A stretch of DNA of 64,000 bases, from NCBI RefSeq assembly GCF_028641065.1, contig NC_073383.1, positions 23,250,001 through 23,314,000 on the forward strand, given 5' to 3'. A model generated the notes under the pieces. The model was not told the origin of the DNA. It was given only the letters and a program-made list of their open reading frames with translations, and did not search any database. Below are positions 25,959-61,373 of the stretch, one piece after another. Both the position numbers and the translations under genes were made by a program. This DNA comes from Leucoraja erinacea (taxonomy: Eukaryota). Position 1 is the first letter of the stretch. Every line of letters begins with the position of its first letter.

Positions 25959-26198
25959 ATGACTGAGGAGAAAGTTGGCACGAATACCCTAATGCCCGCT
26001 CTTGATGTTGGAGAAGAGTGGAATGGTTTTATAAAAGAACAGGCTTGCAAGTCGTTAAAGGTGAAGTCATAGTTGTGGAATAGGTTCATTCCTGTGGAGG
26101 AAAACAATAAACTACTGTTGGACTTTCTTCATAAGAAGCAGCATGGGAGGCTGTTGTTAATCACTGGAGCAGGCTGCGCCCTGTAAGCTGATGTCCAG
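25959..26198 (+). pseudogene. DNAH11: DNAH11-like exon 1 remnant
   Basis: MTEEKV...FIKEQACKSLKVKS*LWNRFIPVEENNKLLLDFL...GAGCAL*ADVQ|gtgtaa; TAG 26070, TAA 26184. Confidence 0.72.
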
Positions 26199-26808
26199 GT
26201 GTAAAATAATACATCCGAATACAAAACCGGGCCGTGTTTGACTATACCTATTGCAATTAAAAGTCACAAGGACCATTTAAAAGTTAATTGATACTTTTTT
26301 TAAACTTGTAAATTGTTTCCAGAAAAGCAGAAAAATTAATCGACATTTCAGAGAAATCGGGATTTTGGGGCAAATGTTTATTCATAAGTTCCCAGTTATA
26401 CGTTATTTAGTATTCAGAAATTAAAATTAATAGTTTTCAATTTCATCTCATTGGATAGAGGCTTAAGGGAAGATATTACAATGTGCTAAATTATTGGTGT
26501 TAAGAATAAATACAAACCGCTGTTCCTAATCTATAGAATTGATGACCCATTTAATTTAAGGTGATTGCCAAAGGACTTGAAGCAACACATTGAAGAGCAT
26601 ATAATTTTAAACAGAGAAAATTTGAATTTGCAAAACAGTGACTGTGTTGGTTTTGTTCTCTGCCATTCATAAGAATTAGACAAATACTTGGAGAAAAAAA
26701 TACAGGGTAGCAAAAAAGTGAGGCCAATGGATTAAAAAAAAGTGAGTTATGAGTGAAGTTCTTTTTGTTGTTGATTGAATTTGGTTTGTTTTTTCTAATT
26801 TTCAACAG

Positions 26809-26943
26809 TTTGCATCAAAAAGTAAAATGTTTTATATTTTAAACTGTAGTGAAAGGTAATTGAGAAGTGATCGTGTGACTAAATTGGTACCAGGGGAGAT
26901 CTTGCACCATCCAATGGAGCACCTGACAATTTTGTTCAACGAG
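26809..26943 (+). pseudogene. DNAH11: DNAH11-like exon 2 remnant
   Basis: caacag|FASKSKMFYILNCSER*LRSDRVTKLVPGEILHHPMEHLTILFNE|gtaatg; TAA 26857. Confidence 0.78.
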
Positions 26944-27227
26944 GTAATGTAATTGAATAATTTGTAACAGATTGGATAGTTTTTCTCTCAAAGCATAATG
27001 TTTGTCTTGGTGAATAGCATCTGCCCATTAAAGGAGAAGCTAGCTCTTCATCAGTTGCCAATGTACTCAAGTGGATATTGAGAAACCACTTTCAAAAAGC
27101 GGCACTGCCACATTTGTTTTAGTTTGGTAATTTTGTAGTAAGTGCAGCCAATCTAGTTTCCCTGAAGAAATGCAAGCTTTTGCCTGCTGTTTTGCACCTT
27201 TCTCCATTTCTTGTAATAAAAATTAAT

Positions 27228-27340
27228 TGTGTAGGAAAGAACTGCAGGTGCTGATTTAAATCAAAGATAGACACAATGCTGGAATAACTCAGCGGGACAG
27301 GCAGCATCTCTGGAGAGAAGGAATGGGTGATTCGGGTCGA
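27228..27340. mobile_element. Penelope-terminus-derived short repeat
   Basis: tgtaggaaagaactgcaggtgctg...tgctggaataactcagcggg; also at 51250 and, inverted, at 62210-62345. Confidence 0.7.
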
Positions 27341-57786: not shown

Positions 57787-58069
57787 ATTTAGTTTAGTTT
57801 TAGTTTAGAGACACGGCGTGGAAACGGGCCCCTCGTCCCACCGAGTCTGTATCGACTAATGAACACACCATCTAGCACACTAGGGACAATTTACAGAAGC
57901 TAATTAATCTACAAACCTACACATCTTTGGATTGTGGAAGAAAACTGGAGCACCCGGAGAGAACCCATGCGGTCATAGGGAGAACAAGCAAACTCCATAC
58001 AGTGGTCGGGATCGAACCTGGGTCTCTGGCACTGGGAGGCTGCAGCTGTGCCACTGCGTCACTGTGCCG
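57787..58069 (-). mobile_element. HE1-like SINE
   Basis: (tttag)n tail and tRNA-like head on the minus strand. Confidence 0.82.
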
Positions 58070-59290
58070 TCACATGTACGATCATTGTAAAATTCACCCG
58101 CATTGTTGAATATGTGAGGCAATCTATAACCCTGCAGTCTTGAAAAATGCAATTGGTTACTCCTGACATTTATTTAAAACTGGTGGAAGTTATTTTGGTC
58201 CTGACTTTTCAATGACGTTTGAACCTTTTTAATGTTTTGCCATTTTCAAATTAAATGTGACTAAACCATTAATGGACTAGCCTTTCCAGATGCAACCCTT
58301 GTCTTTTTCCCTCCTTCTGCCGCATTACCATTGGCCTTAGTACACTTCCCATATGATAGACTAGCTAGTCCTTAGTTTGATGTAGTGTCGTGCTCATTGT
58401 GTGACTTCCTATACAATGGGGAAAACAAACATCGATTCAATGGGATTTGTTTTGTGGAACACCTCCATTAAGTCCACAAGCATGAACTTTTGGTCCCCTG
58501 ATACATCAATTTACCATTCCACTTCGTCTCTGATCTCCATGTCCTTCACCCTTTTCTCTGTTTCAGTGAAGTCGATGTAAGCTGAAGAAACGGTACTTTG
58601 CTTTTTGACTAACATGTTACAGCCTTACAGACTAATCACCTGAATTCAACAATTTCAGGGCATCAGAATTTCCAGGCAGTCATATGTTCCTGTGGTAATT
58701 TCAGAAATCATTCCACCTTGTGTAATCATCCCCTTTGTATTGAATCTCTCTAGGCTTCCAACCTGTTTTACACCTTCCCTTTCTGCTCCCCTTTGTGTTT
58801 CTTAACCTTTCATGCCGACAATATTGTTCTATTGATTTGGTCTAGTATATGATTATTTTGTATTATTACAGTGTAAATTTGTACTCATTTAATTTGAGTA
58901 AATTATTTTTAGAGTATATCAGTGTTGAAAAATATATTTTAGCATTCAAATTTTAAAAGATGGGAACATATGAAAGACACATCCAGTATAAATTCTAAGA
59001 GATTATCATACAGTTACATTTTGACTGGCATGTCTAAATGAAACAAAATGAATGTTTTTGCTACAAAATAATTATCTGTACCAGATTAAGAATCTCAGGC
59101 AAAGTCCTAATCTTATGATAGTGGTCAAACTTTATGATTATTAACCAAATTCAATCGGTGGTTGCCACCATTTTAAAAACATTACTCGTGCCTGAAACAG
59201 TTGAACAAAAAAATGGAGGTACACACACCAGGAAAAAGATGTAAACAAAGGAAATTGCTGCAAAAAACTGGAAATCCGTAATGAATATAT

Positions 59291-61145
59291 TGTAGCGGGA
59301 CCAAACGTGGTGAACAAACAGTTGCTGTATTCAGAAGTTACATGGTTGGTGTACATGCAAGTTTGGTCCTCTAACATACTAAGTCATTGCTGCTGCTGCT
59401 GAGTGAGGGTGTTGCCTTGAGCTCAGCTACCTGTACACTCATGATCTCCAGGTGAGATCTGCTTATGTAGCCGGACACTCCCCTTAACCCATGACGTCAC
59501 GTGACAGCCCTCGTAACCACTGACTGCTGTGGGTCGGGGGGGTCGGGCCCGTGGGCACAGTTGACGCTCCGGCTGTGGGCCATCCTGGCCATATGCTGAG
59601 GGGTCCAAGAGCCGCAGGATGGACGAGACACAGTCGCATCTCATCGACCAGCACGGGATCGCGTCCCGAGAAATACGGCACCCAGTAACGGCTGAACATC
59701 GGGAAACGTCAGAAGGTCCCGACCACAATGAACACGGAGGGGAGGCTGGCTGGAATGGTGCCTTCCTCCAAAGCTTTTTTTTTAAATTAAATTTCAATTT
59801 TATTTTTAATATGTTTTATTATTTATTTATTATTTATTTTTATTATTTTTTGGGGATTTTTTTTTATAGCTAAGGGAAAATTTTGTTGTCCCGGCGACAA
59901 TAAAGGACATTACAGTGTCCCGAGAAAAAAAACTGAAAAGAAACAAACCAAACTACAGTGAGCAAACATGTACAAAGTGGTAGGAAACTAAGTTCAAAGT
60001 GTCTGATGTGAAGCTGTGCTGGAAGCTGGAAGTTGCAGTGACACCATCCGACCTGAAATGGCGCTGTTGCTGGCAGACAGACTGTTGACGACGGTCAGAG
60101 CAGGTCGAGCGTCGCTTCTGGCCAGCCGCGGCGTCCATTTTGGCTGCCGACTGAGACGGCCTTCACTGGTGGCCAACTGAGGCAATTACTGGATGCGTGC
60201 TGGGCGGCCGGCATCGACCGGGCCTCGCCCCACCGCTGCAGGTAGGGACCACCTATCTTCGCCGGTGTCGTCAGAGACCGGCTGCGCTGCCGTGCCCTTG
60301 GCGGAGACTGGAAGCTGCTGGGGAATCCGTCGCGGGACCGTTGAGTCATGACCGGCTGAGGCTTCACCCCGCTGCTGGGCTGACTACAGCCCGACCGGAC
60401 GGGCAGCCAGCGCCCGGGGATCGTCGAAATCCACGCCGGCGAGGAGCAGAAGGACGTCTTCGGGCAGCCATCCCAGGTAGGCCCGTTGGATCTGGAAGTT
60501 AGGCCTTGAGCGGCAGCCAGCGGGGCAATGGGCGGGCAGCGGCGATTCTGGGGGCGGGGTGCTGCTAAACCCGCAGCTCCTGCAGCAAATGGTGGGGGAG
60601 CCGCCGCTGGTGGGGGAGCGGCATTAGCTGTGGCCTCTCGGCTCCGAGCGGGTCATGCAGGAGAGATTGGCGGCCGTCAAACAAGGCCCGGACAGTGCCC
60701 ATTGACCCGGGCAGCCTGCGGCTGCTGATACCAGTCACAGGAGGAGGTCGTCGGTGGAATACATTACGATAGGGCCGGGTTGGTGGCAGCATCGTTCAGC
60801 AGGGCTGAGCTGTCGGCTGCAGACATCAGGTCTCCCGAGGCTGCGTGTGTCGGGTGAAATTCAAAATTCCAATTTGGATCATCGCGGGTTGCCAATCTAG
60901 CGGCACCAAACGTGGTGAACAAACAGTTGATTTATTCCGATGTTACATGGTTGGTGTACATGCAAGTTTGGTCCTCTAACATTCTGAGTCATTGCTGCTG
61001 CTGCTGCTGCTGCTGCTGCTGAGTGAGGGTGTTGCCTCGAGCTCAGCTACCCGTACACTGATGATCTCCAGGTGAGTTCTGCTTATGTAGCTGGACACTC
61101 CCCTTAACCCATGACGTCACGTGACAGCCCTCGTAACCACTGACA
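59291..61145 (-). mobile_element. Putative internally deleted LTR retrotransposon (Gypsy-like), LTRs at 59291-59525 and 60896-61145
   Basis: Direct repeats of 235 and 250 bp; outer termini TG...CA; primer-binding-site-like TGGCAACCCGCGAT (minus strand, 60881-60894); AATAAA on minus in the right repeat; no target duplication or polypurine tract seen. Confidence 0.65.
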
Positions 61146-61211
61146 AGGGTTCGACCGTAAGTGGTCTGACTATCAGCTGACACCACAATATTTTGAAATT
61201 GTTTCTTCTAG

Positions 61212-61373
61212 ATCAACATTTATTAAGCAATATATGTCCAAGTTAACGCATTTGAAGATATCCATAGCCTTGGGTGGTTTCAAGTGTGCATTAAACCCTT
61301 CGTCTTTGTTAAGCACAATAAAAAGGTTGACCCGGATGTTTAAGGAGCATCTTTTAAACCATTTAATCAATAG
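61212..61373 (+). pseudogene. DNAH11: DNAH11-like exon 17 remnant
   Basis: ttctag|INIY*AIYVQVNAFEDIHSLGWFQVCIKPF(fs)SLLSTIKRLTRMFKEHLLNHLIN|gtaagg; TAA 61224. Confidence 0.9.

Follow-up and report, generated by a model that had tools for sequence, protein, structure and literature searches.

The SP3-CDCA7 and SP4-CDCA7L regions of vertebrate genomes are paralogous blocks from the early vertebrate (2R) duplications, according to the available part of Dong et al. (PMC2831330), whose Table 4 places a non-coding DNAH11-like remnant beside human SP3 on chromosome 2. Kollmar 2016 (PMC5100056), in the portion available, links none of the dynein duplications to any known duplication of a genome. Kupffer's vesicle expresses dnah11 in the zebrafish embryo, where dnah9l was seen in the otic vesicle only (PMC6008050, accessible sections); two further papers mention dnah9l transcripts in zebrafish testis data, and the accessible portion of PMC13108966 holds nothing on dnah9l. 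In elasmobranchs, noggin1 is reported to be a unitary pseudogene (PMC10869764, available part), likewise a lineage-restricted loss of an old vertebrate gene.

Here we describe a dynein locus of a batoid, likely a skate, that is very probably what is left, in broken form, of dnah9l, the sister gene of DNAH11 linked to SP3. It is likely a unitary pseudogene, killed once before the sampled relatives split. A sequence-only reading had called it an unprocessed pseudogene of an outer-arm beta-type heavy chain lost in a restricted lineage, and alignment, relatives' contigs and trees support that call. The gene differs from noggin1, and lesions in common with relatives reveal in what sequence the dnah9l remnant decayed.

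Results

A dynein remnant downstream of an SP3-like gene

The window, the whole stretch of DNA analysed, is 64 kb of repeat-rich vertebrate DNA. Alignment to orthologs traces a dynein remnant over positions 25959-61373 (+ strand), which retains 12 exons out of the first 17 in an axonemal heavy-chain gene and corresponds to residues 1-1104 of the Mustelus protein (4,471 residues). About the first quarter of the gene thus falls inside the window; the motor exons lie beyond its end, and the damage tally covers exons 1-17. A profile search of the window did not find the exon after 17. Introns are kept at the ancestral site, with the 12 exons spread across 35 kb. The exon layout is consistent with human DNAH11 exon lengths, and exons are numbered after that gene. 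The features are as follows.

13097-19505 (+): upstream SP3-like gene, last three coding exons; synteny marker; open
25959-26198 (+): exon 1 remnant, 240 nt; stops at 26070 and 26184; 52/81 residues identical to shark ortholog P0004
26809-26943 (+): exon 2 remnant, 135 nt, 9 short; stop at 26857
26944-28985 (no strand): gap in place of exons 3-6 (P0004 residues 129-362), 2,042 nt; its 3' end is the mutated CG acceptor
28986-29064 (+): exon 7, 5' part; one codon gone
29065-30728 (-): Helitron-type insert splitting exon 7, 1,664 nt
30729-30880 (+): exon 7, 3' part
36583-36749 (+): exon 8 remnant; stop at 36700; 1-nt deletion at 36730 (-1 frameshift)
37149-37265 (+): exon 9, 117 nt, open
37266-38509 (no strand): intron without exon 10 (~46 codons); contains a high-copy SINE-like repeat
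38510-38615 (+): exon 11 remnant, 106 nt, 19 short; stop at 38585
38668-38842 (-): exon 12, inverted 5' part, including its acceptor (38809-38808) and the duplicated arm 38668-38760
38843-38987 (+): exon 12, 3' part, with arm 38843-38935; 2-nt deletion at 38930; stop at 38952
39110-39214 (+): exon 13, 105 nt, open
53748-54132 (+): exon 14 remnant; +1 frameshift at ~54042; 2-codon deletion
54989-55321 (+): exon 15 remnant, 333 nt; stops at 55262 and 55310
56849-57053 (+): exon 16 remnant, 205 nt versus 246 expected from batoid orthologs; frame-breaking deletions at ~56891 and ~56956
61212-61373 (+): exon 17 remnant; stop at 61224; frameshift at ~61302

The upstream gene is of zinc-finger type and lies on the same strand as the dynein, with exons at ~13097-13290, ~14642-14841 and ~19177-19505. 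It had been described as clean, and the three exons found are indeed open. It carries an IKEE motif, which we take to be a mark of SP3; its second Atlas match was an 'SP3 factor' (score 0.93, a lead only), and a PDB search with the zinc-finger exon could not separate SP3 from SP4. The dynein remnant therefore sits downstream of an SP3-like gene, as expected for dnah9l.

The segment 54989-55261 shares 66-71% identity with shark dynein fragments in a protein search. A second search recovered full-length orthologs from sharks, chimaera and stingray, and the sawfish protein clusters with the stingray's. For each of two exons, all 7 of the 7 PDB matches were beta-type outer-arm chains. Homology of the tail to DNAH9, DNAH11 and DNAH17 and to algal and ciliate beta chains identifies the predicted product as an outer-arm beta heavy chain (DHC4-beta).

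Extent and order of the damage

All eight stops in the sequence-only reading are present and in frame with P0004, its five named frameshifted exons (8, 12, 14, 16 and 17) are each borne out, and the exon 7 acceptor at 28984-28985 reads CG, as had been claimed. Most splice sites survive, again as described: the other 22 of 23 in the 12 retained exons are AG or GT, with the exon 12 acceptor on the opposite strand. Exon lengths, compared here with Mustelus residue counts, agree with the shark protein for the claimed 117, 105 and 333 nt. For exon 7, the claimed 231 nt arises by coincidence and does not reflect true survival, because a 1,664-nt insert splits the exon and the shark exon measures 234 nt, one codon having been lost; an intact exon 7 is thereby ruled out.

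The damage extends beyond the earlier account to a ninth stop at 38952, a length shift in exon 11, the absence of exons 3-6 and 10, the insert and an inverted duplication. In total, 9 of the 777 in-frame codons read are stops, length-changing breaks affect six exons and five exons are missing; exons 9 and 13 alone are complete with an open frame. The missing exons gave best profile scores of 1.0-4.9 bits across all six frames of the window, in a search that found 4 of 4 control exons at 46.6-70.9 bits. Codon 38 is already a stop, so no motor could be made from this start. The lesions had been called independent, and they are separate mutations, but they built up one after another once the gene was dead.

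Helitrons are marked by a 5' TC, a 3' CTRR, a hairpin near the 3' end and integration between A and T that leaves the target unduplicated. The exon 7 insert starts with TC, ends with a hairpin followed by CTAG, and sits between A and T with no target duplication; its hairpin has an 8-bp stem that stops 10 nt short of the end (z -3.2; matched in stability by 2 of 200 shuffles), and the insert carries an internal tandem array. With all of these marks present, the insert is a non-autonomous Helitron-type element. The two exon 12 arms (38668-38760, inverted, and 38843-38935) are identical at 87 of 93 positions, with 6 differences, and both carry the 2-nt deletion at 38930, which must be older than the duplication. 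Further downstream, two 247-nt direct repeats flank a region near 60000-60900 where GC is 59-65% and the CpG ratio 0.75-0.87; this CpG-rich stretch looks like a mobile-element remnant.

The remnant belongs to the dnah9l clade

Trees from IQ-TREE (27 rows) and FastTree (55 rows) agree, and both divide jawed-vertebrate DNAH11-type proteins into two clades. The DNAH11 clade holds the ape, Xenopus, coelacanth and gar DNAH11 proteins together with those of the skates Amblyraja, Leucoraja and Rhinoraja. The dnah9l clade holds coelacanth and gar 'Dnah9 like', many teleost 'dnah11', frog and lizard '11-like' and shark 'dnah11' proteins; Danio is represented by D. aesculapii alone, whose protein cluster includes a member named '9 like'. 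In the IQ-TREE analysis, the window joins coelacanth and gar 'Dnah9 like' in the dnah9l clade (100/100) and stands outside the DNAH11 clade. Orthologs of the same clade (100/100) are Pristis XP_051885643, Mustelus XP_078083834, coelacanth H3ASB2 and gar W5MKY4. DNAH11, the SP4-linked left-right dynein, belongs to the sister clade and shows the same order of SP gene then dynein as the window. Identity as DNAH11, DNAH9 or DNAH17 is ruled out by the placement of the window within the dnah9l clade in both trees.

Within that clade, IQ-TREE makes the window sister to Pristis plus Hemitrygon (100/100), themselves paired at 99/98, which points to a batoid outside the sawfish-stingray group, a placement that the long branch of the window could bias. 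Pristis dnah9l and the window share 481 of 651 residues, and the short exon 16 segment of batoid dnah9l orthologs is also seen in the window. Sharks, chimaera, sawfish and stingray (the last with a low-quality flag) have full-length dnah9l models, whereas the window copy is broken. The Hemitrygon model, flagged low quality, lacks exon 1 and the Pristis model skips exon 2.

Full-length DNAH11 models are present in Amblyraja, Leucoraja, Rhinoraja and Pristis. A length- and word-limited protein search returned no skate protein of the dnah9l clade among the best 120 of 797 matches, and the batoid dnah9l protein cluster contains Hemitrygon and Pristis only. This lack in three annotated skates, taken with the position of the window in the tree, makes a skate the likely source.

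Relaxed constraint and relative age

Constraint was gauged at the protein level, on columns that show no variation across nine shark and chimaera proteins and the two intact batoids. In the window, 39 of 251 such columns are altered, compared with 6 of 218 for Pristis and 13 of 225 for Hemitrygon as matched controls, and relative-rate counts stand at 95:30 and 97:55. At the level of residue changes, these counts show relaxed purifying selection on the window copy. Under a simple neutral simulation, the 15.5% of changed residues corresponds to ~7% change per site (6-7% with background allowed for) and the 9 stops to ~9% per site, each with wide error. The window and its most distant compared relative, X16, differ by ~2.6% per lineage; set against ~6-9% neutral change, this makes the loss likely two to three times older than their split.

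Lesions are nested among related genomes

Twenty sequencing runs from eight organisms match part of 36400-39400, and four of them (X3, X9, X12 and X16), all DNA runs, were aligned over 36500-39300. The listing for 36400-39400 includes no RNA run, which has no bearing on expression. The cross-species comparison of the locus that had been proposed found intact shark, chimaera and sawfish proteins and, in these relatives, some of the same lesions. The dynein locus is present in all four, with long contigs that diverge from the window by 1.2, 2.5, 4.2 and 5.2%, respectively.

Stop 36700 (TGA) is common to X3 only, with TGG in X9, X12 and X16. The 1-nt deletion at 36730 is found in X3 and X9, while X12 and X16 keep the extra base. 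Contigs of X3 and X9 also cross the inversion junction, showing the inverted duplication in two of four; X12 bypasses the inversion (121 letters versus 183) and X16 switches strand, the pattern expected for a single, uninverted state. X12 has no listed insertion that would compensate the 2-nt deletion at 38930. X16 has 19 extra letters over 38390-38671, in the region of exon 11, and breaks of its own: two 1-nt deletions in exon 8 (36719 and 36724) and a 10-nt deletion in exon 9 (37161).

Among the differences listed over 36500-39300, no lesion is common to all four relatives at base level. None of their contigs has room for exon 10, all breaking within an intronic repeat, and loss of this exon is likely common to all four. 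At the listed exon sites, depth amounts to one contig per relative (80% likeness), so no similar second copy is seen.

Alternative explanations

Errors of assembly or consensus in an intact gene would be a negligible source of these lesions. The cross-species check covers 36500-39300 only, which leaves this reading its one opening; within exons 8-12, however, it is contradicted by lesions common to other organisms' contigs, whose nested sharing could not come from one faulty assembly, in keeping with the earlier judgement that assembly error was unlikely. Whole missing exons, an insert with exact Helitron ends, duplicated arms diverged at 6 of 93 sites and eroded conserved residues argue the same way. 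It is also very unlikely that the window holds the discarded twin of a dnah9l copy still working elsewhere. The remnant lies at the expected site beside SP3, three skates have a DNAH11-clade protein while the best 120 of 797 matches include no skate protein of the dnah9l clade, and four relatives show one contig per listed exon site at 80% likeness.

A single ancestral death is harder to separate from several inactivations across skate lineages after selection had relaxed. The three X16 frameshifts (36719, 36724 and 37161) are absent from the window, and X12 and X16 are without three of the window's lesions, as separate losses would produce. Against this, exon 10 is apparently missing in all four relatives and the ~6-9% neutral change since loss exceeds the 2.6% per-lineage distance between window and X16, so we regard separate losses as unlikely and one ancestral loss as the better account. 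Finally, the 5' tail might be dead while downstream motor exons give a shortened product from an internal promoter, for example the CpG-rich stretch at 60000-60900. That stretch lies between 247-nt direct repeats and resembles a mobile element, and exon 17 just downstream is broken too. A tail-less heavy chain could not dock in the outer arm, which counts further against such a product and makes it highly improbable.

Discussion

Overall, this locus is best described as an ordinary, well-supported and likely unitary unprocessed pseudogene, the parallel loss of a little-studied ohnolog. Tree and synteny together support an origin of the DNAH11/dnah9l pair by genome duplication, against the statement of Kollmar. 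The human SP3-side remnant reflects the same ohnolog gone from the same block; with 12 recognisable of the first 17 exons here versus one exon-sized remnant in human, the loss described here would be a separate and likely younger event.

A possible history begins with DNAH11 and dnah9l arising in the early vertebrate genome duplications, after which dnah9l may have served as an alternative outer-arm beta motor for a narrow set of cilia (the otic vesicle in zebrafish). With DNAH11 kept, dnah9l would have become dispensable and selection on it could have lapsed; point mutations, exon deletions, a transposon and an inversion would then have accumulated.

The sequence-only reading had linked the loss to left-right patterning. 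That relevance is weak: the gene is dnah9l, not DNAH11, and dnah9l was seen in zebrafish embryos in the otic vesicle only (PMC6008050). Judged from this expression pattern, an effect on left-right asymmetry is unlikely, and an inner-ear link of dnah9l may be treated as a lead; a sperm role may be considered in view of the zebrafish testis transcripts. Annotated skates keep DNAH11 itself, and the consequence is thus likely modest. The finding is no demonstration of altered laterality or fertility.

A broader proposal is doubtful: the early duplications could have given vertebrates, in dnah9l, a fourth beta motor of the outer arm, one dedicated to cilia of the inner ear. Skates and mammals would have lost it independently, and its loss would mark lineages that gave up a step, driven by cilia, by which ear stones form or are tethered. 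If that were true, skates versus sharks would offer a natural knockout comparison for dnah9l.

The disappearance of a redundant ohnolog is nothing new in kind, and a human loss of this very gene is already on record. In the literature covered, outside which most subscription journals fall, we found no published account of dnah9l loss in skates or cartilaginous fish. A caution follows for annotation: many shark 'dnah11' entries are dnah9l, and the true shark DNAH11 is labelled '11-like'. The locus adds a parallel, roughly time-ordered loss of a barely studied ciliary motor, named as dnah9l in only 3 papers of the literature covered; its value lies in a clean order of decay and in the pointer it gives to an unstudied motor.

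Repeats within and beside the dnah9l remnant

The broken dynein gene, a remnant of dnah9l (the SP3-linked sister of DNAH11), carries or adjoins repeats at several points along its length.

Repeats and open frames in and around the dnah9l remnant
25020-25587: G-rich minisatellite with a 27-nt unit, ~370 nt 5' of where the dynein gene starts
29065-30728: Helitron-type non-autonomous insert within exon 7
29521-30173: tandem array, part of that insert
30900-33930: decayed LINE of ~3 kb directly 3' of exon 7, with endonuclease and reverse-transcriptase fragments
40680-48830: stacked pieces of decayed CR1-like LINEs, intron 13
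42789-44966, minus strand: open frame of 725 codons among these CR1-like pieces
51846-52870: degraded fragments, intron 13
59290-61146: pair of direct repeats, 247 nt each, 89% identical, with TG...CA-like ends

The degraded fragments of intron 13 are putatively transposase-like. Towards the 3' end, the paired direct repeats bracket a 1.4-kb CpG-rich stretch; no target duplication was seen at this pair, and the element is likely an LTR-type remnant. Long minus-strand ORFs over the minisatellite are spurious products of this repeat.

Distribution of dnah9l among vertebrates

Among the best 120 of 797 ortholog-search matches, dnah9l-clade proteins came from fishes, lungfish, coelacanth, frogs and lizards, with clade placement resting on 54 proteins put on a FastTree tree. 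Shark protein names are often exchanged, 'dnah11' denoting the dnah9l clade and 'dnah11-like' true DNAH11 (proteins P0003-P0008 and P0141-P0147).

The dnah9l model of the stingray Hemitrygon akajei (P0007) is flagged as low quality, does not include exon 1 and shows single-residue gaps when aligned with its sawfish (Pristis) ortholog. No true DNAH11-clade protein of Hemitrygon appeared among the best 120 matches of a separate protein search. Stingrays may have undergone a further or reciprocal loss, or the pattern may reflect limits of annotation or search.

All turtle, crocodile and mammal proteins placed on the tree grouped with true DNAH11, a placement that hints at additional losses of dnah9l among amniotes.
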